Assembly: GCA_964551175.1 (NCBI GenBank)
Contig: CAZKBZ010000002.1
Location: 2,110-66,109, forward strand
Direction of reading: 5' to 3'
DNA length: 64,000 nt
Origin: an uncultured Desulfobulbus sp.
GTDB taxonomy: Bacteria > Desulfobacterota > Desulfobulbia > Desulfobulbales > Desulfobulbaceae
Below, in pieces: positions 11,986-52,695 of this stretch. Within the stretch, counting starts at the first letter, position 1. Each line of letters begins with the position of its first letter. The translations under genes were made by a program, and so were the position numbers. The notes beneath the pieces were generated by a model. It was not told the origin of the DNA, did not search any database, and saw only the letters and a list, made by a program, of their open reading frames with translations.

Positions 11986-11991
11986 TATTGA

Positions 11992-12936: not shown

Positions 12937-13754
12937 ACCCGCAACCAGCGAACCAGCACATACTTGATCAGAGCCCATAACATATAGGGAGAGGGATGTT
13001 TCCAGTACAGCAGTAGTTCGCTGGCAGCAGCAGTCAAACGCTGTTGATACGGAACCTGATGCCTGCTCTGCCAGCCGCGACAATGAAAAACCTTCAAATC
13101 AGGCAGATAGACAATACGCCAGGGTGACTTTTGAATCCGCAGACAGAGTTCAATATCTTCTTTATACAAAAAAAAATCAGGATCAAAGATGACGGATTCC
13201 GACAGAGCTACCTGGTCTAACATCTCTTTCCGACAGAACAGAAAAGCCGCACAGGCAGCAGGAATATCTTCCTGTTCTCCAAAGCGGTCATCATCCGGCT
13301 CCCCCTGTCCCCTGTCATGCCAGCGGCCATACCATTTCCTGAAAACACCGGTAGAATCTATAAATCCGGTCGCCTGTTGCAGCTTACTGTCAAAACCGAG
13401 CAACCTGCCGCTCACGCAGCCAACGTCCTTATTGCGGACTAGATAATTGATCGCCAATTCTATAGTGTTCGGTTCAGGAAAAGCATCAGGGTTCAGGAAA
13501 AGAACAAAATCAGAAAAACGATCAATGCTCTTAAAACCGAGGTTATTCGCCCGGCCGAATCCAATATTTTTTTCCAGATGCAAAACTGTCCGGTCCTTAT
13601 TGCGGTAAGGCTGCAAATAACCGGAATCAATCGATCCTGAATCAACAATTACAGTGGTTTCTGGCTGTACAGTTTGTTCATCTAAAGAAGTAAGGCAAGC
13701 CCCAATCTCGTCTTGGGAATTATGGGTTACTATAACTACTGATGCGCTGTTCAT
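12933..13754 (-). CDS. Family 2 glycosyltransferase
   Basis: ASVVIVTHNSQDEIGACLTSLDEQT ... VIVDSGSIDSG, plus the EDIELCLR motif. The start is set at the internal ATG 13752-13754 (MNSAS), 13 nt after the upstream stop. Confidence 0.8.
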   Translation of the reverse strand: MNSASVVIVTHNSQDEIGACLTSLDEQTVQPETTVIVDSGSIDSGYLQPYRNKDRTVLHLEKNIGFGRANNLGFKSIDRFSDFVLFLNPDAFPEPNTIELAINYLVRNKDVGCVSGRLLGFDSKLQQATGFIDSTGVFRKWYGRWHDRGQGEPDDDRFGEQEDIPAACAAFLFCRKEMLDQVALSESVIFDPDFFLYKEDIELCLRIQKSPWRIVYLPDLKVFHCRGWQSRHQVPYQQRLTAAASELLLYWKHPSPYMLWALIKYVLVRWLRV

Positions 13755-13767
13755 AACAGTACAGACA

Positions 13768-14829
13768 TTAGAGAAAGAAAAAGCAGTACATGCGCAACAA
13801 TCTGTTTCCCTTGCCCAGCGCACTACGCCGACGCATGATAGATACAATCACATCCTTTTCAGCCCTTTTCAGGCATAATGCAAATTCAGGAACCGTCATC
13901 TCATCATAACGGCGAAGCCCATGATGTTTCTCACGCATTTTCAACAGACTTGCAAATGCCTGAAACATACCCCTGCAATAGGGAAGAAACTGATGCTTTT
14001 TAATCGAGAACAAAAACCAGCAGAACTGATAAATACAAATAACGGGAAGAAACCGTATAAACAGGGAAAGCTGATAATTTTTCAGCAAAACATACAGAGA
14101 ATTTCTTGTGGACAGCCTGATGGTAAAAGCATTTATTTTTGAGCCAGTTGTTGCACTACCGATATGATACACTACAGCTGAAGGCACATAATATCCCCGG
14201 AGCCCAGCTCGATTTATTCGAAGGTTAAGATCAACATCTTCAAGATAGGCAAAAAAATCTTCATCAAATAAACCAACCCGATCAAAAAGTGTACGCCGAT
14301 AAAGGACAGCACCGGCACAGGCACCGAATACCGGTCCCGGCTTGTTATAGTGTTCACAGTCCTCTTCCATGGTTCCAAGACGATAACCTGCCCCTCCGCG
14401 CAGATACCCATCCCCAGCTCCATCAAGAATAGTACGCTGATTGAAGCTTAACATTTTAGGGACAAAAAAAACAAACTCCGGCAGCTTGCATGCTGTTGCC
14501 AGCAGCTGTTCCAATGCATCCGGCCGCAGCTCGGTATCATTGTTGAGCAGGAAAACAAATTGCCCGGAACTATTCTGAATACCGGCATTAACGGCTGCAC
14601 TGAACCCCTTATTTTCATGAAATTCTAAACAGCTCACTTCAGGCCATTCGGCCTTCAAGTACGAAACAGAACCATCTGTTGAACCATTATCAACAACACT
14701 AATCTGTAAGTTCCTGACAGTTTGTTTTTTGAGGGAAGACAGGCAGGTACATAAAACCTCAACACCGTTATAATGTGGTACTACGACATGAATGACAGGA
14801 TCACAACCTTCCATACCGACACGTTTCAA
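13768..14829 (-). CDS. Family 2 glycosyltransferase
   Basis: VVVPHYNGVEVLCTCLSSLKKQT ... SVVDNGSTDGS ... LEDVDLNLR, with C-terminal hydrophobic helices. Confidence 0.8.
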   Translation of the reverse strand: MKRVGMEGCDPVIHVVVPHYNGVEVLCTCLSSLKKQTVRNLQISVVDNGSTDGSVSYLKAEWPEVSCLEFHENKGFSAAVNAGIQNSSGQFVFLLNNDTELRPDALEQLLATACKLPEFVFFVPKMLSFNQRTILDGAGDGYLRGGAGYRLGTMEEDCEHYNKPGPVFGACAGAVLYRRTLFDRVGLFDEDFFAYLEDVDLNLRINRAGLRGYYVPSAVVYHIGSATTGSKINAFTIRLSTRNSLYVLLKNYQLSLFIRFLPVICIYQFCWFLFSIKKHQFLPYCRGMFQAFASLLKMREKHHGLRRYDEMTVPEFALCLKRAEKDVIVSIMRRRSALGKGNRLLRMYCFFFL

Positions 14830-14834: not shown

Positions 14835-15800
14835 TTACTCCGGTTCCGGACGCCCAAGCACCTTGCGAACATAATATATCGGTTTACGTTGTGATTCATG
14901 GTAAGTACGCACCACAAGTTCAGCCAGTAATCCGATGGTAATAAACTGAATCCCAATGAAGATCAGCAAGATGGCCAGTAACAGCAGAGGACGATTTGCC
15001 AGAGAAATTCCGAAAAACTGGCGTTGAATGGTCATGTACAGAGCAATGAAAAAGCCAATGGTCGAGGCAACAAAACCAAACGTTCCAAAAACATGTAAAG
15101 GTCTGGTAGCATAACTGAGCATAAATTTTACCGTCATGAGATCCAAAATCACCCGCAACGTTCTGGTAATACCGTATTTAGAGGTGCCAAACATCCTTGG
15201 ACGATGATTTACTTTGATTTCGGTAATAGAGATACCCATACCGGAAGCTATTGCCGGAATAAAGCGGTGCATTTCACCGTACAAACGAATATTGTTTGCT
15301 ACATATTTGCGAAACGCTTTCAAGGTGCATCCGTAATCATGTAAATGGACCCCTGTTATCCAAGAGATGATCCGGTTGGCAACCATTGAAGGAAGGCGAC
15401 GTGACAGGAACGGATCTTTTCGTTCAAAACGCCATCCGGTTACCACGTCATAACCGGATTCCATTTTTTTTATCATTTCAGGAATATCATGGGGATCATT
15501 CTGCAGATCACCATCCATAGTGATAATTATATCACCCTGAGCGTAATCAAAACCCGCCGACATAGCTGCAGTCTGGCCGAAATTACGACGGAAACTGACA
15601 ACAACTACTGATACATCTGTTTTGCTTATTTGATCAAGCAACTCAAGACTTCTATCTGAAGAACCGTCGTCAATAAATATGATCTCATAACTATACTTTA
15701 TATCTTGAAGAACTTGAAAAAGTTCTTCATAAAGCGCAGTTATGTTCTCTTCTTCATTGTATATGGGAATAACAACCGAGATCTTCAATGTACACTCCAT
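14835..15800 (-). CDS. ArnC/GtrB-type polyprenyl-phosphate glycosyltransferase (GT2 with two C-terminal TM helices)
   Basis: ISVVIPIYNEEENI ... IIFIDDGSSDRS ... DGDLQNDP, then GTSKYG and two TM helices. This is the architecture of the ArnC/GtrB/DPM1-like enzymes. Confidence 0.8.
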   Translation of the reverse strand: MECTLKISVVIPIYNEEENITALYEELFQVLQDIKYSYEIIFIDDGSSDRSLELLDQISKTDVSVVVVSFRRNFGQTAAMSAGFDYAQGDIIITMDGDLQNDPHDIPEMIKKMESGYDVVTGWRFERKDPFLSRRLPSMVANRIISWITGVHLHDYGCTLKAFRKYVANNIRLYGEMHRFIPAIASGMGISITEIKVNHRPRMFGTSKYGITRTLRVILDLMTVKFMLSYATRPLHVFGTFGFVASTIGFFIALYMTIQRQFFGISLANRPLLLLAILLIFIGIQFITIGLLAELVVRTYHESQRKPIYYVRKVLGRPEPE

Positions 15801-15809
15801 ACTGGATGT

Positions 15810-17894
15810 TTAAGGAAATAAATAAATGTCAGGCCAGCAATCATTGCCGGTATGAAAAGTCAAACGTTCCGCATTACTCATGGGTGTCCCCATAAGCCAG
15901 ATAAATATCTCATAATCAGCAGCATCGTGCTGGTGTCCTCCTGTACTGGCACCATACACCATGGTATCCCTGCTGTTGGCTATTCTGGGAAAATACTCAT
16001 GACTATAGGAAGTCGGCGAATCAAACAAGAGAGTTTTCTCCATGGTGACGGGGTCTACCCTGTAAATGGCATTTTGTTGTTTTCCGCCATGATCGACATA
16101 ATAAAGAAATCTTGCAGCCGGACTCCAGTTCAGTTGACAGCCGTTTGCAATCTTCTGCATGGAACCATCAGCATGAATAATGGAAGTTTCTCGCATTGAT
16201 CCCCTCAAGGTTACCGCCATAGCATTCCGTACAGAACTCCATGAAGGTGTTTCCAGCAGAACCGAAGCAGGGAGATCAATATTGTTACCGGTTTCCATGA
16301 CCACCTCCTCCGCTCCGGTATCAAGAAAATAACGTACAAACTGATTGCCATTGCGCTGAAAATAGATGATTTTTCCATCTTCCGACCATGTCGGTACATT
16401 ACCATGTTCAGCGATAAGCCGTTCTTTTCCATCTACAAGAGACAAGAGATAGACATCCCAAGGAAAATAATTACGCTGAGGAACCCATTTTTCCCGGGAA
16501 CGGGCAAAAACAATGCTTTTGCCGTCAGGAGAGATTCTCGGAAAATACTCTGTATTCGGATGATCTGTCAACCGGGAGATTACCTTATCCGGCAGAGTAA
16601 GCATCAGGATATCATGAGACCCATAGCGATTAGAACTCCAGACAACAAAACCTTTTTTTGCGGGAAGCCGGCTGTCTGTCTTACTGATAACTCCTTCGTG
16701 AAAAATTCTCTGTACTGCCTGACCTCTGTCAGGGGGAATAATTGGCCCAATTTTTTTCACCAAACGCAGTTGAAACAGCAGAAACAGGCCGACCCCGCCT
16801 ACAAAAACCGTCAGCAACACCACTTTGACGCCAATGCGCCTCCTCTTAGATGTTCCTGCTGGTTCCTTGCTCGGTAAGGTAGAAAAAATAAACAATACCA
16901 TGGCCAGAGCGCCCAAAGTGTAATCAATACTCTGGCTGATAATATGGAGCGCCAGCATGATAATAACAGCGGCCGCCTTGTCCGCACCTAGAAAAATAAG
17001 AGCTGCCGCTCCACCCGACTCATAAGTACCGAAACTCATGAAAGAGGGAATCGGAAGGCTTGCTGATGCTTCAGCAGTGAGCAGAGTAGATATAACCGTA
17101 ATCGGCTCGGAAGATACGTTGGAAAAACTCGGTAATACAACTCCCATAAAAAGAAGGTAAAGGCCTGCATATTTAAAAATGCGCACAGAAAGAGAAATGA
17201 AAAACACCTGCCAGCCAATTCCTGCCTTGCGCACCTGCTCCAGTGAAGAGATAACATGGCGGGAAAAAACCAGGAAACGATCAAGATATCGTCCCCGGCC
17301 CGGCAGCCGTTGCTCAAGAAACCCTGTTACAGCGGGAACAATTGTGAAAAGAAAGAACAGGAGGGCAAGGCTCATGCAGACTAAAAAAACAAAAACCACA
17401 AGCAGCCACATCGGTAATGACGACGTCAGCGCCTGGTATCCAATGAGCAGCAAGACCAGACAGGCAAGGGCGATAAGATCAAAAATAAAACTGATGGCAA
17501 GTGAAGACAAACAGGCATCGGCTCTTGTCCTGTAACCACGATTTAACATGGCAATATAGCTTAACTCTCCCAAACGTGCAGGTAGAAGATCCACAAACAT
17601 GTTCCTGGCAACCGTAACCAGGCCAACATGATAAAGCGAAGGAACCCGGGATGTAGACGCCTTCAGCAATACAAAATATCGAAGGGTCCGGACAAACGCA
17701 CCGAGCAAATTGACAATCAGATATCCTCCGATACAAGGCAGCGAAGTTTGCAAAATAGTCTGAAACAGGCGGGGACGATCTGCGGGATCAGTGACCCCGA
17801 GAACATACTGTAACAATAAGCCTACAATCAGACAGGAAACACTCAAAGAGAGCAATACTTTCACAACAACGCGCAGATTAACAAAGTCTTTCAT
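15810..17894 (-). CDS. UPF0104 (MprF-flippase-like) membrane domain fused to a TolB-like beta-propeller
   Basis: The N-terminal roughly 370 aa are polytopic, with the UPF0104-type motif LLPARLGELSYIAML. The C-terminal roughly 300 aa carry PD40/TolB-like repeats (YFPRISPDGKSIVFAR, PTWSEDGKIIYF, LNWSPAARFLYYV). Confidence 0.7.
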   Translation of the reverse strand: MKDFVNLRVVVKVLLSLSVSCLIVGLLLQYVLGVTDPADRPRLFQTILQTSLPCIGGYLIVNLLGAFVRTLRYFVLLKASTSRVPSLYHVGLVTVARNMFVDLLPARLGELSYIAMLNRGYRTRADACLSSLAISFIFDLIALACLVLLLIGYQALTSSLPMWLLVVFVFLVCMSLALLFFLFTIVPAVTGFLEQRLPGRGRYLDRFLVFSRHVISSLEQVRKAGIGWQVFFISLSVRIFKYAGLYLLFMGVVLPSFSNVSSEPITVISTLLTAEASASLPIPSFMSFGTYESGGAAALIFLGADKAAAVIIMLALHIISQSIDYTLGALAMVLFIFSTLPSKEPAGTSKRRRIGVKVVLLTVFVGGVGLFLLFQLRLVKKIGPIIPPDRGQAVQRIFHEGVISKTDSRLPAKKGFVVWSSNRYGSHDILMLTLPDKVISRLTDHPNTEYFPRISPDGKSIVFARSREKWVPQRNYFPWDVYLLSLVDGKERLIAEHGNVPTWSEDGKIIYFQRNGNQFVRYFLDTGAEEVVMETGNNIDLPASVLLETPSWSSVRNAMAVTLRGSMRETSIIHADGSMQKIANGCQLNWSPAARFLYYVDHGGKQQNAIYRVDPVTMEKTLLFDSPTSYSHEYFPRIANSRDTMVYGASTGGHQHDAADYEIFIWLMGTPMSNAERLTFHTGNDCWPDIYLFP

Positions 17895-17921
17895 GTCAGT
17901 GATTCCTATACCATCTTATCT

Positions 17922-18914
17922 TCAACCCGACCCGTTCTGTTTGCCGGTACTTCGGCTTATTTTTGAACCGGTCAGAAGAATGCGACCAAGAAAGACAAGC
18001 CCTCCGAAAAAAGAATAACAAACTGTTATGGCGAGAAAAAATAATGCCAGCGACCTGGTCTGAATATCACTAAGCCCTGCTAAGCCAAAAAACATGACAT
18101 AACCCGCATCACGGACTCCAATTCCGTATATAGATATTGGCAAGGCCTCCATCAGAGTAATGACTGGTACAAAGGCAGCAAAGTAATAAAGCGATACAGG
18201 AGCCCCCAGGGCAAGGGCCATGAGATAAACCACCAGGATAACGGAAATCTGAAAGGTAAATGAAATAACCATGACCTTATATAATACGCGGGAGCTGCTA
18301 TGGTAGCGGGTCCAGGCTACAAAAAAATTATCAATAAAAGCTGCAACAGGAGCAATCCGATCAAGCCTGGTGATTTGCAACATGTATCGGGCCGGACTCT
18401 GCATGACAAGCATCCAGAGAATAAAAACAAGAAGGGCAAACAGAGAAAGGGGCAACAGAAAAAACAAGGGGTGACCTATTCTGCCGGCAACTGGGAAAGA
18501 GGCTGCAAGGCTTAATAAAATCAAAGCCAGGAATCCGGAAATACGGTCGGCAAACACTGACGCTGCGGAGCGTGCGACCTGATTTGACTGTTTTGCCACA
18601 TCATAAATACGATATGAATCCCCGCCGATATTTGACGGCAGAAAAATATTGAAAAAAGTGCCGGTCAGGTATGAAACCGTTAATCTGGCCAAAGAGATAT
18701 GTATATTGTCCGCATGCAGCAAAATCTGCCATTTCAAGGCACTTAGAACCGTATTGACAAGCAAGAGAAAAAAAATCAAGGGTAGATAACGGTAGTCGAT
18801 CCCGGAAAACAACTGGATAATACTGTCAAAAGGAGTGCTCCTGTAAAGTAAGACGAGCAGGAGACCACTGATGGTAAGCTTGAGGGCAACTAGCAATACT
18901 TTGGTATAATTCAT
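17922..18914 (-). CDS. UPF0104 / lysyl-PG-synthase-TM (flippase-like) family membrane protein
   Basis: 330-aa polytopic protein with the family motif LSALKWQILL ... FFNIFLPSNIGGDSYRIYD. Confidence 0.75.
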   Translation of the reverse strand: MNYTKVLLVALKLTISGLLLVLLYRSTPFDSIIQLFSGIDYRYLPLIFFLLLVNTVLSALKWQILLHADNIHISLARLTVSYLTGTFFNIFLPSNIGGDSYRIYDVAKQSNQVARSAASVFADRISGFLALILLSLAASFPVAGRIGHPLFFLLPLSLFALLVFILWMLVMQSPARYMLQITRLDRIAPVAAFIDNFFVAWTRYHSSSRVLYKVMVISFTFQISVILVVYLMALALGAPVSLYYFAAFVPVITLMEALPISIYGIGVRDAGYVMFFGLAGLSDIQTRSLALFFLAITVCYSFFGGLVFLGRILLTGSKISRSTGKQNGSG

Positions 18915-18921
18915 TTCGTTA

Positions 18922-19671
18922 TTACCGGACGGGTTCCGAATCCGGCCTGTTTTTCACGACCCTGGCCGGGATGCCCATGCAGATGCTATAGTCCGGAACA
19001 GACTTTGTTAGAACCGATCCGGCAGCGGCAACAGCTCCCCGGCCAACTTCCACTCCTCCGAGTACCGTTACTCTGCCTCCGAGCCAGACGTCATCGGCCA
19101 GTTTGACACCATTATCAAACAGTATTCCCTGTTTCCGGATGGGTATGCCACGAAGCTGAACATTATAGCTCCCTCCTCCGACAATAAAACATTGCTGGCC
19201 AATAATGTTGTCTCTACCGATCACCACAGGGCAGTCATGGGTTGACTGAATAATCGTCTGAGCGTTAATACCGGTATCTTCGCCGATGGTGATAGTACCT
19301 TCCTTGCACGACAGCATAACGTTATTGGAAAGAATAACATTACTGGCCAGGGAAATAGTTGTCTGCTTGTCTGCACTACGGCCATCCAAGATACAGTATT
19401 CACTGATAACTACCTTTTCACCGAGATGTATGCGGGAAGGATGGCGCAGTACAATACCGCAACCGAACATAACTCCACGTTGGCAGGATCCAAACAGCCG
19501 CGGCCAGAAAATCTTGCGCAACGCCATGCCCAAGGCACCGGGAATAGGGGCAAGACACTGGCACCATTCAAAGTATATCAGGCGGGATAGAGAAGGAGAA
19601 CCAACAACAACCTCTTTATATTTACTAACGGCAGACCCTTGTCCGGTTATTGCTTTGTGTGTTTTTTTCAT
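18922..19671 (-). CDS. Hexapeptide-repeat (left-handed beta-helix) acyl/acetyltransferase
   Basis: Imperfect hexapeptide repeats run through the C-terminal 170 aa (VWLGGRVTVLGGVEVGRGAVAAAGSVL). Confidence 0.8.
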   Translation of the reverse strand: MKKTHKAITGQGSAVSKYKEVVVGSPSLSRLIYFEWCQCLAPIPGALGMALRKIFWPRLFGSCQRGVMFGCGIVLRHPSRIHLGEKVVISEYCILDGRSADKQTTISLASNVILSNNVMLSCKEGTITIGEDTGINAQTIIQSTHDCPVVIGRDNIIGQQCFIVGGGSYNVQLRGIPIRKQGILFDNGVKLADDVWLGGRVTVLGGVEVGRGAVAAAGSVLTKSVPDYSICMGIPARVVKNRPDSEPVR

Positions 19672-21098
19672 GGATTGGCCTGGTTCTCTTTCTCTACTTT
19701 ATAGAATTTTTCCCAACGGGCATCCTTCAGTTCATCAACCCTAACGGGACGTGCATCCTTACAGCTGCTGCCAACACGGACCTCTGGCTGCATAACATAC
19801 TGATGGCTGGGCAGATGGAGTACAATATATTTATTGTTGTTTAACAAATCTTCCTGCTCGTAGAAATGAACAGCATTAACAAATTCCTGCATTCCTGCAA
19901 TAGGCTTGATCCAGCCATATTTGGGATACTTAATGTTGACCGCTGCAACAATTCCGACAAAAAAGAAAACAAAAACAATTACAACCGGTCCTTTTGGTTG
20001 GTATAATATACAGATACGATCAACAACATAGAGAAGAAACAGCAGCCAGAAAAAAACAGATACCAACCGATGGCAGTCACTGGTAAACAAATATTGAGGA
20101 AATTTAACACTTAAAAAAAAAAGTGCCAACGAACTGAAAATCAGGGAAAATATAATAAGAATATTTTTAGAATAGCAGATGTCTCTGCGAAAAAAAAACA
20201 GTGAAAACACTACTGCTACTAAGACTACAGCTCCCCAGTACAAGGCAACATGATCAAACAACCTCAGGAAGGCAACTTTTTCTACCATTACCTGAAAATA
20301 ACGCTTAACAACCCATAACTTCAGCTGGGTCAACTTTGAGGTCTGAGCTTCAACCGTGCAGAAATAAATTAGTGTTGACATGATACCAAGCAGAATCAAC
20401 ATATTTTTTTTATGGTTACGATAAAGCAGAATATGTAATAATCCTGCCGGAATCAATAATACGGAATAAGGTCCAGACCATGGCAAAAGAACAAACAGCA
20501 TGCCCATGGACACTGTTCCGAACCTGGTTCGCGGATCCGGAAAGAACAAAAGGCAGAATAGCACCAGAACACCCGTGTACATAATATAGATCAGGGTGTT
20601 ATAATAATAGATATGATTAAGACCGCACAAACCAAGAACTGTCGGGCCGATGAGAAGAACAACTCTGCTGCGCATGAGACCTGAAAAAAAGATGCAGGAT
20701 GCGGCTGCAACAGCTACGCAAAAGCCCCACCACTGATACGCGTATGGTTGCATCCTGACATCCAGCCGGGAAAACAGCCATGAAAAAAAATTCGCTGGTA
20801 CAGTTAAATAATTCTGTCCTATATGACTGGAAAAAACAGAGGCCAGGTCCCGTGAATGTCCGTAATAATAACTGAAAAGCAGGGAATCCTCCATATATAA
20901 ACCCGGTGTTTTCAAGGTCTGCCATGAACGGATAAGGTTAATCACAACAAGAAAAAAAACTCCGGCCACGGCCCAGGTAAAGTTCGTTTCTTTCTTCCCG
21001 GAAGGATAACCGGTAGATGATTGGTACTCCAGCGAATGGAGCTGAAACTTTCCAGTATGTGTCATGTCAATCAGATTAGAGGAAAAGAAGGAACTCAA
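19668..21098 (-). CDS. Uncharacterised polytopic membrane protein (paralogue of 25377..26768)
   Basis: About 11-12 TM helices. It aligns clearly with the 25377 ORF (PGLYMEDSLLFSYYYG / PGMYMEDATHYFNIYYG; SRLDVRMQPYAY / SKLDVRMVTWAY; GLNHIYYYNTL / SMNHIYYYTSL; C-terminal VRVGS..DAR). Confidence 0.6.
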   Translation of the reverse strand: MSSFFSSNLIDMTHTGKFQLHSLEYQSSTGYPSGKKETNFTWAVAGVFFLVVINLIRSWQTLKTPGLYMEDSLLFSYYYGHSRDLASVFSSHIGQNYLTVPANFFSWLFSRLDVRMQPYAYQWWGFCVAVAAASCIFFSGLMRSRVVLLIGPTVLGLCGLNHIYYYNTLIYIMYTGVLVLFCLLFFPDPRTRFGTVSMGMLFVLLPWSGPYSVLLIPAGLLHILLYRNHKKNMLILLGIMSTLIYFCTVEAQTSKLTQLKLWVVKRYFQVMVEKVAFLRLFDHVALYWGAVVLVAVVFSLFFFRRDICYSKNILIIFSLIFSSLALFFLSVKFPQYLFTSDCHRLVSVFFWLLFLLYVVDRICILYQPKGPVVIVFVFFFVGIVAAVNIKYPKYGWIKPIAGMQEFVNAVHFYEQEDLLNNNKYIVLHLPSHQYVMQPEVRVGSSCKDARPVRVDELKDARWEKFYKVEKENQANP

Positions 21099-21261
21099 CT
21101 GAAAGCTAGTTTCCTACATGTGGTGAAGGCTCTTCGGATAATTAAATATTCAGGCAACTACCTATACTTACTGAATAATAAACAGATTGACAGGCCGCCA
21201 ATATCCAACAAAAACAGAATAGCTGCTTTGTCTGATTGTTAACCAGAAAACTTTTCTCCAA

Positions 21262-21305
21262 AAAACACATTAAAAAAGGTCGACCCCTAAGGCAGGAATC
21301 GACCT
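21262..21305 (-). terminator. Rho-independent terminator after the SGNH hydrolase gene
   Basis: On the minus strand, AGGTCGA pairs with TCGACCT as a 7-bp stem (21277-21283 / 21299-21305) followed by TTTTTTAATGTGTTTTTT. It starts 27 nt after the stop at 21332. Confidence 0.55.
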
Positions 21306-21331
21306 TATTATATTTATGGCATACTTTATTA

Positions 21332-22363
21332 TCAAGTCTTGCACAGCGCCTTTTTTCGCTCAAGTAAAAAAAGAAAAAACATTGATAACGAAAAGATAAC
21401 AAAAAGCAACAGCATGTAACTTTCATGCAACACCAAGTAAGCTAAACAGATTAAAGGATAAAGCAAAAATCGGACCAACATTTTTACAATATCATGACGA
21501 TCAATAAAGTCGGCTATTGGAGGTGAGTAACGATAGTACATCTGTACAAATAGTTTGCCTGGCCTATTGGTCAGCAAACATTGGTCCCGAAACTTCCTTA
21601 ACACCATTACCTGGGGTTGAAAAGCGGTACCAAAAGCGGCTGTGGCGATAAAACAGCCACCACCGCCGCCACCGCCGCCACCGCCGCCACCGCCATAGGG
21701 TAACGCAGCTGCAAAACCCTGGGCCAATACGCCAGCCCCCTCATTATTGGGATGAACACCATCCACGCTCAATGCCTTCCAGTTGCCGATAACGCTCCCG
21801 TAGGAATCAACAAAAGGAACTGCCTTTTCCTGCCCCAACCCAATGATGGGAGGATTATAACTATCAGGAATAGCCGAACCGAGTCCGTCGTTACGATGAT
21901 TAGGTGTTATTGTGGAGAGTATCGGTATGGCTCCGGAAGCCATACTTTTGTCAAGCATTCTAGCTAAATTAAATTTCACGGTTGAAGGAGAGTATCCCCA
22001 AAAGGCATCATTTGCCCCTTCCATAATAATTATGTACTGAGGGTGATTTGATTGCAGAACACCATCTATTCTACCTACTCCTCCCCTGGTTGTTTCACCG
22101 TCAAGTCCCTGGTTTACGACATTAACACCATCGCCGACCATTCCCTGTAAATGAGCAGAATATGGTATCTGGCCATGGCCGGTTGTAATAGAGTCACCGA
22201 ATGCAACAACAGTGTCGGCATCTGACATTTTTGGAAGGACAAGCAATAAAATAAAACCGACCCCAACTAAACGATGAATTTTTTTTATAACTGAATAAAA
22301 CACAGCTACCTCTTTACTGTAATTGTATCTGGCCTTCAAAGCACAGAAGATTGGAAAAAACAC
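21332..22363 (-). CDS. Secreted SGNH/GDSL esterase with Gly13 linker and CFI-box-type C-terminal membrane domain
   Basis: SGNH blocks FGDSIT, GLDGETT, MEGANDA and DGVHPN. These are followed by 13 consecutive Gly, then CFIATAAFG...[33 protein letters not shown] plus terminal hydrophobic helices. The start codon is uncertain. Confidence 0.75.
21656..21694 (-). repeat. Simple GGC/GGT codon repeat encoding Gly13
   Basis: Thirteen consecutive GCC/ACC triplets on the plus strand. These are Gly codons on the minus strand inside the SGNH gene. Confidence 0.95.
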
Positions 22364-22448
22364 AAAAAATGTGACCTAACCAGAAACAGAATGATAGACG
22401 ATTAACCCTGAAAATAACCCGCCTTATATCAATAGTACTCTCTCCAAA

Positions 22449-23228
22449 TTATTCGTCTTGAAAAATCCGAAAAAAAGCCTGACGTGTATCCTTAATGAAA
22501 TCAGGATAGTCTATCTGTTTTTCGATCGACAAACCTTGAACCATCGTTTTCTGTGATTCCGGACCAACTATCTGCTCAGGTCCCCAACCATTGCCAGTCC
22601 AGAAAGACTGCAACATGACATACTTGCCGGACCGGTACCCTTCCCAGTTGACCATCAAAGTTCCAATTTCATCAACTGATATAACAGGAAGAACATCTGG
22701 CACCTCATTGGATTTATTAACTTGTTTCGGCCTTTGCCATTTCCCATCCAAAAATCTTGTGGAGTATATTTCATCATTGGAAATACCGTCGTTAGCCGAC
22801 CAAACCACCCATGGTACTCCACCGTCATCTACAATAACGGTTGGAGCAATATTAGATGATAACTCCGTAGGAAGAACTTGCGGTTCCAACCACTCGCCAT
22901 TGTCATTGGTCGTATAATGAATTTCAGACTCGCCCTGTTCAATAGCCGTCCAGAACAACCATATTTTTCCATCTGCGCCGGAATCAAGACATGGGTGCAG
23001 ATTATCCGCATTATCATCAGTAATTTTCTGTGGTGCAATCCAGTTTCCATTACGCTGTGCAGTGAAATACAACTCATGCCTCAAGCCATCAGACTCTGCC
23101 CAAACCAGATCAATTTTTTTTGCCTTGTCACTGTTGCTAACAGTTGCAGACGACATGGACAAACTGGAGACAAAAATTATCACAGCAAGGGTAACTACTG
23201 CTTTCAATCCGATACTTTCACCAATCAC
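22449..23228 (-). CDS. Secreted protein built from four ~50-aa W-rich beta-propeller-like repeats
   Basis: N-terminal signal peptide, then four repeats with the pattern h-h-W...G...E-h-Y.....G-W..P (KIDLVWAESDG.., KIWLFWTAIEQG.., VPWVVWSANDG.., TLMVNWEGYRSG..). Confidence 0.6.
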   Translation of the reverse strand: MIGESIGLKAVVTLAVIIFVSSLSMSSATVSNSDKAKKIDLVWAESDGLRHELYFTAQRNGNWIAPQKITDDNADNLHPCLDSGADGKIWLFWTAIEQGESEIHYTTNDNGEWLEPQVLPTELSSNIAPTVIVDDGGVPWVVWSANDGISNDEIYSTRFLDGKWQRPKQVNKSNEVPDVLPVISVDEIGTLMVNWEGYRSGKYVMLQSFWTGNGWGPEQIVGPESQKTMVQGLSIEKQIDYPDFIKDTRQAFFRIFQDE

Positions 23229-23363
23229 TCTGCAACTCCATTTGTATTATATTTTACCAGTACAACCGGCAGCGAGGTAGCTAGTCCTAAAGCTGTTTGA
23301 TTTCTTAAGAGATCCAATACAATGTTTATTGTTATTTAGAAGCAATTCACAAAGCAACAGCTG

Positions 23364-25232
23364 TCAGGTACCATATTTTGCAATCTCATACAAGCCGACA
23401 AAAACAAAATTATAAACACTCAACAAAAACATTACCAATATCAGAAAATGAAAAACCGGGCGAATCAAACACCTTTCCACATGACAGATATAAACTGAAC
23501 ACATTGCAAGAATCGGTAAAAAATAGCGCCCTTGGGCTTGGAAATCAACAGTCCAGGCATGATACATGGCCACTACCACCAGAGCCAGGCTGACGGAAAG
23601 AGTGATCATCAACAACAACACACCGGATAGACCTCCTCTGACCAGGACTGGAAGTATTATTGCAGCAAGTAAAAACAGCCCGAATATTCGCACAATATCG
23701 TAATAAATTGAAGGTCCGGAGATAGAAACATAACCATATACACCAAACGATGTTCTAAACGATTTTTCTCCCCACCGATCTTTCTGAAGGAAATGCTTCA
23801 GGGTTGTCCCCCTGTCCTTCATTTGCAAATATCCGTGTTTTAAAGGCAATGGAGTACTTGGTTTATACATATCAAGGGCAAGATGCTCCCGAGCCTCGAA
23901 CAACTTTTCTCCTCTGTCAAAGCCATTGACGTAATAATCTACTCCTCTGGACAGACCAAAAACAGAAAAAGCCACCAGGAGAACTGAACTCAAACGAAAC
24001 AAAAACTTGGCGTCAGCTGTCCAATCAGAAAAAACCACCTTCCACAGGCAAAACAAAAACAAAAACACATAGAAAAAATAAAAATTCTTTTTCAGCAGCA
24101 ACATCACGCCAAGCAGAAGACCTGTCAGCAGAAAATAATACCAGGTTTTCCTTGTCATGCCTTTACGAAGCAGGATATTCAACATGGAATCAGCAACAGC
24201 AACCTGGTAGCCGACAAGCAGAATAACAAACAAGGCAAAGGCGTCAGAATTAAAATAACTGAAAACATACCAGGTCTGTGGCGAGATGAGGACCGGCAAC
24301 AAAACAAGGCGAAACTCCATTTTTTTCAGTGCACCCAGCAGTAGGATGGAGAAAAGAAAAATATTAAAAAAACGAAGGATCAGAAAAGAAGGCTGGTACA
24401 GAGGTTCGGCAAGCTTCAAAAATTTACCGGCCAAAAAATAGACAATCTCACCTGAATGCAACCTGGAAACACCATAATTGCTGTATGTGTGAAGAATCTC
24501 CGGATCTTCAATTCTTGGGGGCAGGGTATGATTCTGATAATACTCGGCAGCATAGATATGAACAAACTCATCCGGATGCTTATTGTACTTACTTACTTCA
24601 GCCATAACAATGATCAAGGCAAAAACAAACACCAGGAGACAGTTGACATATAGATACTGCTCTGTGATTCCGGAAAAAACCCATGCCAGCAGATAAACGG
24701 AAATAAATATGCAGCCCATCCTAACCGTTTCCGACAGCAATGTGGAAGTCCTTGTTATTTCCGGCAACTGGAGTAGTAGTTGCGGATCCCGTCCTTCCGG
24801 GATGACGACGAGGCCCGTGTCATCAAGGGTCAACTTCCGTATCCCTTCGATCTCGACCAACTGGTCTAAGCCTGATTTGCTGTCGTATTTAAAAGTCGGA
24901 TAGCCCTCCTGTTTAATCACTAAAGATTTTAAAGTTACCCGTGCCGGCCGTTCTGAGGTATCAATTCGTATGCTTGACACCTTATCTAAATTACAGATAT
25001 GAAACCTGTAGATATTCAAACCTGGTCTAATTCTGATACGAACCATATTTTCCTCAGAGTAAAATCCGGATTCATTCAGCCAGTACACTTTCAGGACTGT
25101 CTGCTTATCTGTTTCCAGATCCAACTCGATAACCGCTTTCCGGACCAGTAACCCGTGATACAGTATGGACAAAAGAACCCCGGCCAACAGCAAGGCAATA
25201 TATTTTTTTATCTCAAATTTCTGTTCCATCAT
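23364..25232 (-). CDS. Large polytopic membrane protein, possible GT-C-type glycosyltransferase or polymerase, with N-terminal extracytoplasmic domain
   Basis: One TM helix, then a ~125-aa soluble domain, then about 12 TM helices. An acidic loop, KHPDEFVHIYAAEYY, follows the first helix of the polytopic block and resembles GT-C loop-1 motifs. No cytoplasmic catalytic domain is apparent. Confidence 0.5.
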   Translation of the reverse strand: MMEQKFEIKKYIALLLAGVLLSILYHGLLVRKAVIELDLETDKQTVLKVYWLNESGFYSEENMVRIRIRPGLNIYRFHICNLDKVSSIRIDTSERPARVTLKSLVIKQEGYPTFKYDSKSGLDQLVEIEGIRKLTLDDTGLVVIPEGRDPQLLLQLPEITRTSTLLSETVRMGCIFISVYLLAWVFSGITEQYLYVNCLLVFVFALIIVMAEVSKYNKHPDEFVHIYAAEYYQNHTLPPRIEDPEILHTYSNYGVSRLHSGEIVYFLAGKFLKLAEPLYQPSFLILRFFNIFLFSILLLGALKKMEFRLVLLPVLISPQTWYVFSYFNSDAFALFVILLVGYQVAVADSMLNILLRKGMTRKTWYYFLLTGLLLGVMLLLKKNFYFFYVFLFLFCLWKVVFSDWTADAKFLFRLSSVLLVAFSVFGLSRGVDYYVNGFDRGEKLFEAREHLALDMYKPSTPLPLKHGYLQMKDRGTTLKHFLQKDRWGEKSFRTSFGVYGYVSISGPSIYYDIVRIFGLFLLAAIILPVLVRGGLSGVLLLMITLSVSLALVVVAMYHAWTVDFQAQGRYFLPILAMCSVYICHVERCLIRPVFHFLILVMFLLSVYNFVFVGLYEIAKYGT

Positions 25233-25376
25233 GCCTGTATCAACAACCGAAGTTGTCCCGCATCTCCACAGGAGACATTTTGTTCCGAAACTCCGTTATT
25301 CCATTGACCTGAAGTGGCCAACAGGTTTCATTAGTCCTGTAAAAGGACACCCTTTGGACTCACATTTTTAGCGATC

Positions 25377-26768
25377 ATGAAACAACCTTCAGACTTCTTT
25401 CAATTTTCCCGGCCGAATTTTCTGTCCAGAGAATTGTATCCGATCCCCGACAAGAAGGATCTGCAAATACAGCTCCCCTTGATCGGAGGAGCTGTAATCC
25501 TGTATCTGCTGACTCTGGCCTTTCGTTCCTGGCCAAATCTGATTCACCCCGGAATGTATATGGAAGATGCCACCCATTACTTTAATATATACTATGGAGG
25601 TAATCGCGACCTATCATTTATACTGCAACACCCCAATGGATACTATAATATCTTGAACAATCTGGTCGCCTGGCTTTCCTCAAAACTCGACGTTCGGATG
25701 GTGACATGGGCATACCATCTCTTTTCCCTAACTACCGGTATTGTATGCGCTGTTCTCTTCCTCTTTACCGGATTGATAAAAAATCGCCTGCTGCTGCTTA
25801 TCACCCCGATAGTCTTGGGCCTTTCCAGCATGAACCATATTTACTACTACACCTCTCTCACCTTTCAAATGTATAATGTTGTTATTATACTGCTCATCCT
25901 CCTGTTTCTGCCCGGACCGGAATCATTTTTCAGTCTGGTTTGCAAAACAGCCCTGGCTACTCTTCTTATCTGGTCGGGTCCATACTCCGTAGTTGCTGTA
26001 CCTGTCTCCCTCGTCAGCATGGTCATGTTCAAAGGAAAATACAGAAATATATGGCTTATGTGGGTCATCATATGTTCTATCGGTTACTCCCTTTCCGTTC
26101 AAGGAGGGATGATACGTTTAGCGACGTTCAGTGATGCGGGTGCCAGACATTCAATGATTTCAACCCTGTTTACAAAAATTTTCTTCATGGATATGCTGGG
26201 ATCACTCTCAACGTATAAGATGAGTATCTTGTTGTTGATCATTGCGGCCATTTTTCTTTTTCTAAGAAAAAATTCCACCTATCTGAAAATTTCAATATTA
26301 CTGTTTGGTATTATCATCGGATCACTGGCACCCCTGTTTCTAAGCGTCAAGTACCTGCTTTATCAGCAAGTCTTTCCCTGTCACATCTATATCGCTCAAT
26401 TCTTCTGGCTGGTCTTTGTTCTCTATACGATCGATCAATTCATGCCGGTACTGAAAAAAACAGCACATTTTTTCCCCCCTGCAGTTGTCGCTGCCATCCT
26501 CTGCTTTGTCCTTGCGGACAATCTCAAACATCCGGCAAAAGGAAAACGAGAAATTATGACAAATTTACCGGATTTTCTTGCAACCATACACAGAGTCGAA
26601 CAGCTATCTCTTATTGATAACAACCAATACGTAGTGTTGAAAACCAACAACATTATTCCCAAGGGCATGCATCCCATGGTACGGGTTGGCAGTCTGCGCC
26701 ATGATGCTCGTCGTCTGCGCCGATCTGAAGTAAAAATATCAAAGGGGAAAGAGTTTATCATCGACTGA
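25377..26768 (+). CDS. Uncharacterised polytopic membrane protein (paralogue of 19668..21098)
   Basis: See 19668..21098. The topology and conserved blocks match. It is transcribed divergently from 23364..25232. Confidence 0.6.
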   Translation: MKQPSDFFQFSRPNFLSRELYPIPDKKDLQIQLPLIGGAVILYLLTLAFRSWPNLIHPGMYMEDATHYFNIYYGGNRDLSFILQHPNGYYNILNNLVAWLSSKLDVRMVTWAYHLFSLTTGIVCAVLFLFTGLIKNRLLLLITPIVLGLSSMNHIYYYTSLTFQMYNVVIILLILLFLPGPESFFSLVCKTALATLLIWSGPYSVVAVPVSLVSMVMFKGKYRNIWLMWVIICSIGYSLSVQGGMIRLATFSDAGARHSMISTLFTKIFFMDMLGSLSTYKMSILLLIIAAIFLFLRKNSTYLKISILLFGIIIGSLAPLFLSVKYLLYQQVFPCHIYIAQFFWLVFVLYTIDQFMPVLKKTAHFFPPAVVAAILCFVLADNLKHPAKGKREIMTNLPDFLATIHRVEQLSLIDNNQYVVLKTNNIIPKGMHPMVRVGSLRHDARRLRRSEVKISKGKEFIID

Positions 26769-26936: not shown

Positions 26937-28460
26937 TCATTCATCTTCCTCTTCTCCTAACTGTTCAACCACCCTTTTTTTTGAAAACCTCATGGCCGAT
27001 GCAAGCAAATATTCCAGGGAAGGTTGTGGTTTGACCATGATAAGAAGCTGATAACTGAACAATGAAGGTCGAAGCCTGATAAAAAAACCATGCAGAGAGG
27101 AAAAAAGCTCTGCCAGCCATGACGAAGAAAAAACTAAATGATACGGGATCGCCAACCCATGGACTTCGCTGACAGTGAAATTGTTTTGAGAAAATAAACG
27201 CTTAATTGATCGCAAAGTAAACAGACGGAAATGACGCAGGTTTATAATCCCTTTTCTGGTATACGAAAACCTTCCGAACAATAATGTTATCCGTGTCAGC
27301 AAAAAAGCGATATTTCCCACGGCCAGGATTATTTCTATTTCTGGACAATATCGACACTTTTCACTGAGCCTTGACAACATTTTTTCCGGTTGCCGGGCAA
27401 GGTCAGTATCATCCAGCAATATCAGATAGTCAAAGCTGTCAAAGTTTTTACATTCCTCATTAAGCAAACTTTTTCCATCAATTACAACCTCGCTCCCTTT
27501 TTCCAGTAGACGTAAACGTAATGATTCGCTACTCTCACCTAAAATCAGTATCTTCGAAGCTGCCGGCAGTACCTGCACGATAAGATCTTCTGCATTTTTT
27601 GAATAAATTCTTTCCTGGTCAGCAGATTCCGGTGCACAGTCAAATTTTCGATCATAAAATATATGATAACGCTGTACCTGTGACTGAGTTGTCACTTTGA
27701 AAACATTCCAGGCATAGGCGATACCATTCACATGGCAAATCTCATCACCATAAAACGTAGGAATAGGCAATTCTCGTATTCGATAGCCGGCAATGACAAA
27801 CTGAATAATGATTTCAGTATCAAAATGAAAATCATTGCTGTTCAACGCAAAGGGAACACCTGCAAGAGCGCTTGTAGAATACAGGCGATAACCACTGTGA
27901 AACTCACTCAAGCTCGAGCCAAGCATTCTATTTTGAAACCATGTCAAGACCTTATTCCCTGCAAATTTATAAAGTGGCATTCCTCCCTTCAGGGCTGAAA
28001 ATCCTTCAAGCATGCGGGAACCGAACACTGCTTCCGCCTCACCCTCAGCAAGGGGTTTCACAAGTTTCGGAAGACATTCCGGTGCATACTGACCATCGCC
28101 GTGGACCAAGGCGACCCAATCAAAACTATTGGCAATGGCGTAGTGAAAACCTATTTTCTGATTTCCACCATACCCCTGATTTACGGGATTAAACAATACT
28201 GTAATCTTAAAAGGAACAAGACCGGCACGGCGGGTCAGCTCACTGCACCTGAAGGTTTTATCCTGGGAGGCATCATCTATGATCAGTATTTCTACTTCGT
28301 AGTTGTCAGCAAGATGACCGGGAATACGCTTAAGGACATCCTCAATGGTCTGCTCGGCATTGTAAGCGACAATAAAAACCAGAAGACGTCCTCTTCTTGA
28401 AGGACCTGCCTTACCCTGTCTTTCAAAAAAAATTGTCTTCCGCTCGGTCTCTTTCTGCAT
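26937..28460 (-). CDS. GT2 glycosyltransferase with C-terminal Rossmann/methyltransferase-like domain
   Basis: N-terminus LLVFIVAYNAEQTIEDVL ... ILIIDDASQDKT ... VHGDGQYAP. The C-terminal roughly 200 aa read KILILGESSESLRLRLLEKGSEVV ... FDYLILLDDTDLARQPEKMLSRL. Confidence 0.7.
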   Translation of the reverse strand: MQKETERKTIFFERQGKAGPSRRGRLLVFIVAYNAEQTIEDVLKRIPGHLADNYEVEILIIDDASQDKTFRCSELTRRAGLVPFKITVLFNPVNQGYGGNQKIGFHYAIANSFDWVALVHGDGQYAPECLPKLVKPLAEGEAEAVFGSRMLEGFSALKGGMPLYKFAGNKVLTWFQNRMLGSSLSEFHSGYRLYSTSALAGVPFALNSNDFHFDTEIIIQFVIAGYRIRELPIPTFYGDEICHVNGIAYAWNVFKVTTQSQVQRYHIFYDRKFDCAPESADQERIYSKNAEDLIVQVLPAASKILILGESSESLRLRLLEKGSEVVIDGKSLLNEECKNFDSFDYLILLDDTDLARQPEKMLSRLSEKCRYCPEIEIILAVGNIAFLLTRITLLFGRFSYTRKGIINLRHFRLFTLRSIKRLFSQNNFTVSEVHGLAIPYHLVFSSSWLAELFSSLHGFFIRLRPSLFSYQLLIMVKPQPSLEYLLASAMRFSKKRVVEQLGEEEDE

Positions 28461-28508: not shown

Positions 28509-28756
28509 CTATTTTTCTCTCTTGATCCTTTTGTATAAAGCTGTCAAACGGTCTTCATGGGGTATCATGAGACGGAACAAAGGCCTGCCAACACGATGAA
28601 GAACCGTTAACACCACGAGGCACCTAATGCCCGGTCCTCCTCCCAGATTCCCCATGGGCAGGAGTTTATTCAAAGTTGATATTCTGGTTATCCTGCCTAT
28701 CTCACCCCTGCCAAGATCAAACTGTTTTCCAGTAACCCGTACCTCTTTCATAGACA

Positions 28757-28757
<1 letters not shown>
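28509..28757 (-). CDS. Small hypothetical protein (82 aa)
   Basis: Its ATG overlaps the upstream TAA (TAATG), which suggests translational coupling. No recognisable motif. Confidence 0.25.
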
Positions 28758-30823
<2,066 letters not shown>

Positions 30824-51973: not shown

Positions 51974-52695
51974 GTTCTGACCTTTCCAGAGGGGGGGGAG
52001 AGAACAAAAAAATAATACAGGATGAGGTAGATAAATTTCAGCGTTTCAACTACATGGCTCATTTTGGAACTACCGGTCTGCCGGGCACGGAATTCCACCG
52101 GAATTTCATGGATCACAATCCCCTTTCTAGCCAGCCGCGCCGCCACTTCAAGGACATGTTCAAAACCATTCCGTTCCATCGGCAAATCAGCTACGATCTG
52201 ACGGCGGAATCCTTTAGATCCTGTATACAGATCCGTTACATTCTGCTGAAAAAGAATGTTGAACATCCTGGAAATAATCTTGTTCCCAATCGTTTTGAAA
52301 AAAGCCATTCCCTTATTACGATCATCCAGAAAACGGGATGTATAAACGACCTCATGATGATCCAATGCCGCCACAAGATCCGGGATCACTTCAGGTGGAT
52401 ATTCGCAGTCAGCATCAATAATAATTACTATCTCTGCAGATGATGCTCGAATACCATCCCGTAACGAGGCTCCGTATCCCTCATTCTGTTCGTGTTCAAT
52501 GACTGTCACGTCCTTAAAACTCTTTAACAAGGCAAGCGAACCATCTGTAGAAGCGTTATCAATAAAAATGATGTGAAACTCCAGATCAAGATCGGAAATA
52601 CGTTGGTAACATTCTACCAACGAGTCTTTCTCATTATAAACCGGAACAACAATATCCACTGATTCCTTTTTCATGAACTTTTTTCCTGAGAACAA
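51970..52695 (-). CDS. GT2 glycosyltransferase (DPM1/polyprenyl-phosphate sugar synthase-like, soluble)
   Basis: VDIVVPVYNEKDSL ... IIFIDNASTDGS ... IIIDADCEYPPE. Its ATGA overlaps the downstream gene. Confidence 0.8.
   Translation of the reverse strand: MFSGKKFMKKESVDIVVPVYNEKDSLVECYQRISDLDLEFHIIFIDNASTDGSLALLKSFKDVTVIEHEQNEGYGASLRDGIRASSAEIVIIIDADCEYPPEVIPDLVAALDHHEVVYTSRFLDDRNKGMAFFKTIGNKIISRMFNILFQQNVTDLYTGSKGFRRQIVADLPMERNGFEHVLEVAARLARKGIVIHEIPVEFRARQTGSSKMSHVVETLKFIYLILYYFFVLSPPSGKVRT

Follow-up and report, generated by a model that had tools for sequence, protein, structure and literature searches.

The stretch at 14835-26768 of a 64-kb window from the genome of an uncultured Desulfobulbus sp. 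(the window being the whole sequence that was analyzed) carries nine long open reading frames (ORFs), eight of them on the minus strand, among them the genes for three large polytopic proteins, here termed A, B and C. On balance, we favor the view that these genes specify an extracytoplasmic glycosylation module, which uses polyprenyl-phosphate-linked donors and lies inside a large surface-polysaccharide island of the Desulfobulbaceae. What is new in it is an unnamed GT-C-like family with its signature residues, a shared periplasmic module, a pair of PplT flippase candidates including a PD40 fusion, and a trio formed by the genes for B, a propeller-like protein and an SGNH hydrolase. The original prediction, made from the DNA alone, had placed a periplasmic, lipid-linked glycosylation module within exactly these coordinates. 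All nine ORFs that it listed are present at the positions given beforehand and are not chance ORFs, because dozens of Desulfobulbales genomes carry homologs of the genes in the stretch at 35-80% identity. Its lipid-linked, periplasmic reading holds and is supported on better grounds than before, while its boundaries proved too narrow: the functional unit is wider than 14835-26768, with conserved partners outside it, namely the partner of C, a family 2 glycosyltransferase (GT2) at 26937-28460, and the foremost neighbors of B, i.e. the small gene orf82, a ribofuranosyltransferase homolog and a soluble GT2.

Judging by its modeled structure, protein B (23364-25232, minus strand) is a GT-C-fold glycosyltransferase on the fringe of the DUF2142 family, an assignment that follows from the structural matches of its core together with the profile matches of its relatives. 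Its AlphaFold (AF2) model, with a predicted local distance difference test (pLDDT) score of 93.4, has a polytopic core, in front of which come an N-terminal transmembrane (TM) helix, a beta-sandwich (residues 34-155) and a TM hairpin, in this order. In Foldseek searches this core recovered EmbB (E 9.8e-4), Pmt4 (E 1e-3), Pmt1/2 and ALG12, all with a probability of 1.00; AftA and ArnT stand lower in the list, in which the GT-C matches mostly have probabilities of 0.9-1.0. The beta-sandwich matched PLAT/C2-type domains. The window's own B gives no match to the DUF2142 profile PF09913, and no usable one to any other Pfam or NCBIfam model, even at E<=10; PF09913 is reached by 5 of 61 members of the B family (best E 1.3e-9), and two clusters of B relatives carry the UniRef name DUF2142. 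Five residues, H219, P220, D221, E222 and H225 (H-P-D-E-x-x-H), are invariant in 86 sequences. They fall in the first outward loop of the GT-C core, directly behind helix 3, with which this core starts. The protein database contains more than 388 relatives of B, and species-representative genomes at least 435; Desulfobulbales, with Ca. Electrothrix and Ca. Electronema among them, account for nearly all. Two Lactococcus proteins, the proposed GT-C polymerase WpsI and the ligase-type WpsJ, belong to DUF2142 (PMC12599335, PMC9574508). From gene context alone, we propose that B would use a polyprenyl-phosphate-linked donor.

Proteins A (19668-21098, minus strand) and C (25377-26768, plus strand) are paralogs of each other (33% identity, E 2e-73). 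Hence, the stretch holds only two polytopic families, where the original prediction had counted three separate membrane proteins belonging to no nameable family; B finds its place as a GT-C protein near DUF2142. Even at E<=10, the scans of A, B and C returned nothing usable from Pfam or NCBIfam, the sole match being a spurious one to YlaH (0.016), and the alignment profiles of both families gave only chance matches among PDB sequences (laminin, Rcf2, L21). B shows no relation to A or C by BLAST, and the possibility that the two families are simply divergent paralogs was rejected at a whole-profile hhalign probability of 0.8%. A word-indexed search for the A/C family recovered 118 relatives, mostly from Desulfobulbales, all termed 'hypothetical' and devoid of Pfam matches. 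An exhaustive profile search widened the family to 769 representatives (clusters at 50% identity) at E<=1e-3, with 91 core members at E<=1e-30; its distant members come from Nitrospinales and Polyangiaceae, and ten distant relatives that were scanned yielded no Pfam domain, with the named ones all bearing the label 'hypothetical protein'.

The AlphaFold model of C (pLDDT 94.7) has about 11 TM helices and, at its C-terminus, a small alpha/beta domain of some 80 residues. Behind the first TM helix (residues 26-56) comes a loop of about 50 residues, which opens with an invariant acidic dyad, E63-D64, and contains short helices at 64-75, 79-83 and 92-101. Among 44 distant relatives the dyad is kept in 41-43, and the wider set P58, E63, D64, G88, Y89, N95, S200 and P202 (C numbering) in 41-44; adding P209 extends the range of retention to 36-44. 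By the positive-inside rule, the N-terminus is predicted to be cytoplasmic, with the conserved polar residues and the C-terminal domain facing the periplasm. The seven best Foldseek matches of C in the PDB are all GT-C enzymes (STT3A, AftA, PglB, AftD, ArnT), and the later ones are unrelated folds with probabilities below 0.1, with AglB, itself of the GT-C type, as the one exception (rank 11). The top 50 Foldseek matches of B and of C include no WaaL or SEDS structure, and no transporter fold is found near the top of the C list; against viral structures C recovered only weak matches to uncharacterized proteins, the best being an Oenococcus phage protein with a template-modeling score (TM-score) of 0.46. 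Thus, none of A, B and C matches the Wzx, Wzy, WaaL or transporter families in structure or profile comparisons. A role of A and C as Wzy, WaaL or a transporter was considered and set aside, as it has no profile or fold support and the pairing with GT2 genes described below argues otherwise. We regard the A/C family as probable GT-C-type glycosyltransferases, in what looks like a new branch of a known enzyme type. The periplasm-facing GT-C role that had been predicted for the polytopic proteins, after the Gtr/Arn-type scheme, is thus supported by the modeled structure of B and by the predicted topology, acidic dyad and GT2 linkage of A and C.

The gene at 14835-15800 (minus strand) codes for an ArnC/GtrB-type GT2 with two C-terminal TM helices, a candidate polyprenyl-phosphate sugar synthase. 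This description, already part of the original prediction, is borne out by the PF00535 match (E 4.4e-35, residues 8-169), a full-length alignment with the ArnC model NF007986 (E 2.3e-76, 256.8 bits) and hydrophobic helices at 235-258 and 261-299; the PgfS model follows with an E-value of 1e-54. The score lies under the NF007986 cut-off of 529 for ArnC equivalog status, and going by these profiles the product is an ArnC/GtrB-type paralog with its sugar left unassigned. Two further loci in the window code for candidate donor synthases. The first is the 507-aa DPM1/AglJ-like protein GT2_507 (26937-28460, minus strand; PF00535 1.3e-19, AglJ 4.5e-17, dolichyl-P hexose transferase 8e-11), which is the conserved convergent partner of C, the two genes being paired in this manner in at least 15 loci. 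The second (50540-52695, minus strand) comprises two genes, one for a fusion of a sugar-1-phosphate nucleotidylyltransferase with a DPM/PpgS-like GT2 and the next for a short DPM/AglJ-like GT2; it is a candidate donor-synthesis pair for A-type enzymes. The same two genes adjoin A/C-type genes in six loci (L083, L088, L094, L097, L107, L116) and thus define a second pattern of linkage, in which an A-type gene stands by the short GT2 and the fusion; in L088 and L116 it lies beside the fusion itself, while in L016 it follows a short DPM/PpgS-like GT2. Overall, a DPM1/AglJ/ArnC-like GT2, its type checked with NCBIfam, occurs within 700 bp of an A/C-family gene in 23 of 39 evaluable loci. In L085, L096 and L103, a compact operon made up of genes for an ArnC-like GT2, a short GT2, a long A/C member, an MBOAT protein and an AlgX protein is placed between rpoBC and housekeeping genes. 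The pairing of synthase and GT-C genes is a hallmark of the GtrB/GtrX, ArnC/ArnT and CsdA/CsdB systems (PMC9574508, PMC11127046).

As flippase candidates the stretch offers two proteins of the MprF-flippase-like (PplT/UPF0104) kind. The product of 17922-18914 (minus strand) is a plain 330-aa member and a candidate flippase of lipid-linked sugars (PF03706 2.6e-38, 132.6 bits; TIGR00374 'flippase-like domain' 1.4e-18). That of 15810-17894 (minus strand) combines the PplT/UPF0104 membrane domain (PF03706 1.5e-18, 67.8 bits) with a PD40/TolB-like propeller (PF07676 3.8e-14, along with a match to the TolB model), which is preceded by an extra TM segment (353-379) and is probably periplasmic. Both exceed the PF03706 (LPG_synthase_TM) gathering threshold of 33.4 bits, which agrees with their description in the original prediction. 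Wherever the PplT/PD40 gene occurs in related loci (L003, L004, L007, L008, L009, L014, L087, L091), the gene for the plain 330-aa PplT protein accompanies it as a neighbor; this pairing recalls a two-subunit flippase such as ArnE/ArnF. Proteins of the UPF0104/PplT group are predicted lipid flippases, most members being putative (bioRxiv 10.1101/2022.03.11.483950; PMC12713373). No small four-TM flippase of the GtrA family was detected among the scanned ORFs of at least 80 aa. As no GtrA, SMR, MATE or Wzx protein was found, the two PplT proteins are the only flippase candidates, and we propose that they would serve in lipid translocation, as their domain matches predict.

Next to them, 18922-19671 (minus strand) codes for a hexapeptide-repeat O-acetyltransferase resembling WcaF/WbbJ and predicted to be cytoplasmic, in agreement with its earlier designation (PF00132; NF007797 1.9e-18). 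Its gene and the two for the PplT proteins constitute a conserved triad in the order Hexapep-PplT-PplT/PD40, which comes directly after B in L008, L009, L087 and L091. Two further products are predicted to act outside the cytoplasm. The SGNH/GDSL hydrolase encoded at 21332-22363 (minus strand; PF13472 3.3e-21, 77 bits; NF041770 4e-30, 103 bits) is bounded by a hydrophobic segment at either end and carries a Gly-rich linker plus a CFI-box-CTERM anchor, in agreement with the anchored SGNH esterase of the original prediction. The second, at 22449-23228 (minus strand), is a signal-anchored protein of 259 aa with four propeller-blade-like repeats of about 48 residues visible in the alignment. Earlier described as a propeller-like secreted protein, it matches GH43, BNR_4 and neuraminidase (sialidase) models below threshold only; in the PDB, no significant match came from the sequence by itself or from a profile of 17 sequences, the latter yielding weak matches to propellers. 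The genes for B, the propeller and the SGNH hydrolase form a conserved trio that is also found in cable bacteria.

We compared the proteins of the window with the six-frame ORFs of 82 loci centered on B. The gene found most often is orf82 (28509-28757, minus strand), present in 39 of the 82 loci and usually immediately upstream of B, which codes for a small basic protein that matched no family in our scans. Next come the gene for a 685-aa HAD protein (28757-30814, minus strand; 33 loci) and that for the 320-aa soluble GT2, GT2_320 (33273-34235, minus strand; 27 loci, at 57-70% identity), a TuaG-like protein without TM segments (PF00535 9e-33). These three form a block of the order GT2_320-(membrane/SpeE-like)-HAD-orf82-B, followed in frequency by the propeller (20 loci), the SGNH hydrolase (17), PplT (14) and the hexapeptide transferase (13). 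The 685-aa protein is a bipartite homolog of HAD phosphatases and glycan phosphoribosyltransferases, apparently cytoplasmic and beta-ribofuranosyltransferase-like: its residues 25-560 align with residues 37-552 of PDB entry 7SHG, 'Ribofuranosyl transferase' (E 3.4e-22), and it also matches Bcs3, the Hib capsule polymerase (4e-12). This homology, full-length in the case of 7SHG, suggests that the glycan contains beta-ribofuranose, which would be added from phosphoribosyl pyrophosphate (PMC11127046, PMC10299916). Around close orthologs of B (at least 45% identity, full flanks) the propeller adjoins B in all nine of the loci, as against none of 20 for distant paralogs (below 40%). Orthologs of the ArnC-like gene at 65-82% identity lie directly beside B in L065 and L074 and within 10 kb of it in L003, L008, L009, L014 and L034. 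A gene order near that of the window is seen in L003, L014, L007 and L004, and in L065 the genes for Hexapep, PplT, the ArnC-like GT2 and B are directly adjacent. Thus, the gene set does recur in related genomes, as its original description would lead one to expect, but in modular rather than all-or-none fashion.

A further connection between B and the A/C family comes from a module consisting of a TM helix and a beta-sandwich, with the motifs R-I-D-P-S-E and D-P-Q-L, for which scans of its carriers revealed no Pfam family. The long members of the A/C family (640-780 aa) have such an N-terminal module homologous to that of B (hhalign 96.4%, E 1e-9); the link between the two families is confined to this accessory module and to the long A/C forms. 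The third carrier is an alpha/beta-hydrolase encoded in the window at 48658-50343 (minus strand; Abhydrolase_6), whose N-terminal TM and beta-sandwich are of the B type (hhalign to the N-terminal profile of B 97.2%, E 3.7e-11; hmmsearch 1.6e-12). Because three enzyme classes of one pathway share this periplasmic module, it probably targets B, the long A/C members and the hydrolase to a common substrate or complex.

From the computed folds, motifs and gene linkages, we infer donors, flipping, an acceptor and enzymatic activities as follows. At the cytoplasmic face, the ArnC/GtrB-type GT2 would load sugars onto undecaprenyl phosphate, and the DPM1/AglJ-like GT2s (26937-28460; 50540-52695) would charge it likewise. 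An acetyl group from the hexapeptide transferase might be added to the lipid-linked product, or else neighboring soluble glycosyltransferases, the ribofuranosyltransferase homolog among them, might extend it. The two PplT proteins would then move the lipid-linked donor across the membrane, upon which B, A and C may transfer the glycosyl unit at the periplasmic face onto a growing or finished glycan, with catalysis presumably depending on the invariant acidic pair of the first periplasmic loop (D221-E222 in B, E63-D64 in C). Finally, the anchored SGNH hydrolase and the small propeller could de- or re-acetylate the same glycan, or else bind or trim it.

Several observations weigh against this proposal. 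The A/C family has no sequence or profile link to any described GT-C family in Pfam, NCBIfam, PDB or hhalign comparisons, and the GT-C matches of C are weak, with E-values of 0.12-0.88, probabilities of 0.25-0.92 and TM-scores of 0.25-0.41, the usual bar being 0.5. The documented or predicted substrates of PplT proteins are phospholipids or glycolipids rather than polyprenyl-phosphate sugars. Only about 8 of the examined loci have an ArnC-like ortholog at most 10 kb from B, and the commonest neighbors of B, GT2_320 and the ribofuranosyltransferase homolog, are cytoplasmic glycosyltransferases. Moreover, in Ca. Electrothrix aestuarii the B-propeller-SGNH trio sits among housekeeping genes, away from any polysaccharide locus.

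In a first alternative, two unrelated functions share the stretch. A glycosylated membrane lipid would be made and flipped, in the manner of GpgSDF/HexSDF, by the ArnC-like GT2, the acetyltransferase and the PplT proteins, or these would take part in lipid A modification; either way they would be independent of the polytopic proteins, and A and C would be something other than glycosyltransferases, e.g. transporters or acyltransferases. UPF0104 flippase candidates do accompany glycolipid synthases (PMC12713373), and the Foldseek E-values of C are by themselves not significant. Nevertheless, we consider such a division improbable: B keeps a conserved adjacency with the putative lipid-handling genes, both as B-Hexapep-PplT-PplT/PD40 and as Hexapep-PplT-ArnC-like-B, and the A/C genes have the GT2 neighbors counted above. 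In addition, the top fold matches of C are exclusively to GT-C enzymes, its acidic dyad stands at the canonical position, and the N-terminal module is shared with B.

The frequent presence of cytoplasmic glycosyltransferases as neighbors of B is easier to reconcile with an oligosaccharide donor than with a single sugar. This brings in a second alternative, a dual-chain 'complex' pathway akin to that of the Lactococcus polysaccharide pellicle (PSP), which we rate as a good deal less probable than the module with its separate lipid-linked donors, though it is the foremost of its competitors. Here, the ArnC-like GT2 would start an undecaprenyl-phosphate-linked oligosaccharide, to be extended by the adjacent GT2s and the ribofuranosyltransferase homolog and then flipped, and one or more of B, A and C would polymerize it, or ligate it en bloc to a glycan started by a WbaP-type enzyme, in place of Wzy and WaaL. 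The DUF2142 proteins WpsI, as a polymerase, and WpsJ, as a ligase-type GT-C, act in this manner (PMC9574508, PMC12599335). The layout of the window is congenial to it: the ArnC-like gene shares one array with the genes immediately downstream (10555-14829, minus strand), which code for a WbaP-type polyprenyl-phosphate glycosylphosphotransferase (Bac_transf 3e-64, CoA_binding_3) and three PF00535 proteins of the GT2 family (GT2_c, GT2_b and GT2_a, which also follow the ArnC-like gene in L003, L008, L009 and L014). Further, scans of the large ORFs of the window revealed no Wzx, Wzy, WaaL, Wza/Wzc or ABC-transporter family; against the force of this absence, the island continues past the window, so that genes for export or polymerization may lie outside. 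The A/C genes tell otherwise, since their pairing is specifically with stand-alone DPM1-like GT2s, and in L085 and L016 elongating glycosyltransferases are absent from their surroundings, an arrangement typical of single-sugar donors, and no co-polymerase resembling WpsH or Wzz was seen.

The setting in cable bacteria raises the question of whether the acceptor might be a protein. In Ca. Electrothrix YB6, the genes for B, the propeller, the SGNH hydrolase, a short DPM/PpgS-like GT2 and A follow each other, with argB and pqiA coming next; we found nothing on these genes in the cable-bacteria literature. A B-propeller-SGNH(-GT2-A) module that stands apart from polysaccharide genes would be compatible with protein O-glycosylation of the PMT or Pgf type, whereby the GT-C enzymes would modify periplasmic or surface proteins using a sugar linked to undecaprenyl phosphate by an ArnC/PgfS-like synthase. 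Compatible with this, too, are the rank of PgfS, a protein of Streptococcus mutans protein glycosylation, as the second-best model for the GT2 at 14835-15800, and the fold matches of B to Pmt4 and Pmt1/2, along with its PMT-like Asp-Glu dyad in the first loop. However, EmbB, AftA and ALG12 match B equally well as the PMTs do, no MIR or TPR domains for acceptor peptides are present, and the window and most relatives embed these genes among those building or acetylating polysaccharides (the glycosylphosphotransferase, glycosyltransferases and MBOAT/AlgX). Accordingly, we deem protein O-glycosylation unlikely and retain a glycan as the probable acceptor of the proposed module.

Three- and four-component GT-C systems are established (PMC9574508, PMC11127046). 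The window shares with the three-component ones (GtrA/GtrB/GtrX, ArnC/ArnEF/ArnT, CsdA/CflA/CsdB, and ORF15/14/12 of C. youngae with GT136) a GT2 synthase with C-terminal TM helices, polytopic GT-C-type proteins whose first outward loop contains an acidic motif, adjacency of the synthase and GT-C genes, and a setting in a polysaccharide locus. It differs from them in having, instead of a GtrA, SMR or MATE flippase, only the MprF-type PplT pair with its one PD40 fusion; in the presence of two GT-C-type families, one unnamed, with three genes between them; and in the addition of two conserved periplasmic partners, the SGNH hydrolase with its CFI-box anchor and the small propeller, as well as several separate DPM1-like synthases. 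With the loci of DUF2142 GT-C proteins (WpsI/WpsJ of Lactococcus, rgp of Streptococcus) it has in common the reach of B relatives to PF09913, the polytopic GT-C fold, and an ArnC/GacI-type initiator together with cytoplasmic elongating glycosyltransferases. Unlike those systems, its B lacks a PF09913 score and carries the N-terminal TM and beta-sandwich, the host is a Gram-negative member of Desulfobulbales, and neither a Wzx-type WpsG nor a WpsH-like partner was found in the window. The models of B and C resemble the solved GT-C structures (EmbB 7BVF, Pmt4 9I5K, Pmt1/2 6P25, ALG12 9S6T, AftA 8IF8, ArnT 5EZM, PglB 6GXC, STT3A 6S7O) in overall topology and in where their acidic residues stand, but at only 9-16% identity and with TM-scores of only 0.22-0.41; furthermore, A and C are shorter (about 460 aa) and have the C-terminal periplasmic domain of about 80 residues. 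Like MprF and other PplT proteins, including GpgF and HexF, the two of the window lie above the PF03706 threshold and beside a lipid-glycosylating GT2, whereas the known or proposed substrates of the former are aminoacyl- or glycosyl-phospholipids and not polyprenyl-phosphate sugars. Among its architectures, the survey text on PplT proteins consulted here lists no PD40 fusion.

The logic of a lipid-linked donor, its flipping and GT-C transfer is already known, and the advance is incremental rather than conceptual. Nevertheless, GT-C enzymes are hard to spot by sequence, and their families are still being founded (GT136, 2024). A sizeable unnamed family hereby gains a testable function, candidate catalytic residues (E63/D64) and a likely partner in donor synthesis. 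If true, the service of PplT proteins to polyprenyl-linked sugars would widen the set of flippases used in periplasmic glycosylation. The genes also outline a conserved envelope-glycan pathway of the Desulfobulbales, an order that includes the cable bacteria, whose envelope chemistry is of current interest. We advance only tentatively, and as rather doubtful in its entirety, a more far-reaching synthesis. In it, A and C would represent a new GT-C-type family at the level of a CAZy family, spanning the 769 clusters at 50% identity from Desulfobulbales (cable bacteria included), Nitrospinales and Myxococcota; the TM-anchored beta-sandwich would be an undescribed targeting module; and the PplT proteins would flip polyprenyl-phosphate sugars. 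Together with B, the propeller and the SGNH hydrolase, they would build an O-acetylated envelope glycan with ribofuranose in it, conserved throughout the order, by a dual-chain route of Gram-positive style that dispenses with Wzy and WaaL.

The stretch is embedded in an island of about 55 kb, which begins at roughly 8.5 kb, extends beyond 64 kb and runs off the end of the window. It includes, besides the WbaP-type initiating transferase, at least nine GT2/GT4 genes, an MBOAT/AlgX pair, two AsnB-type amidotransferases, epimerases and a NeuB-like synthase. The three GT2 ORFs downstream of the ArnC-like gene (11992-14829, minus strand) overlap by 80-150 bp and have TTG starts; their real starts are probably further downstream. 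The membrane/SpeE-like gene in the block upstream of B (30839-33223, minus strand) codes for a 794-aa protein whose spermidine-synthase-like domain is flanked on either side by about seven TM helices; this protein is 70-74% identical in L001, L003, L025, L102 and L119. The MBOAT protein and AlgX-like SGNH protein encoded at 35679-38962 (minus strand) are of the type involved in periplasmic polysaccharide O-acetylation, and the pair recurs beside A/C-family genes. The amidotransferases (39027-40961, minus strand; 43245-45125, plus strand) are full-length and of the asparagine-synthase type, and may amidate uronic acids. At the edge of the island, 8564-10519 (plus strand) codes for an LtaS/sulfatase-type protein with five TM helices and a sulfatase domain, possibly a phosphoglycerol or phosphoethanolamine transferase. 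At the other end, where the window cuts the island, the NeuB-like synthase (62042-63979) is fused to a xylose-isomerase-like TIM barrel.

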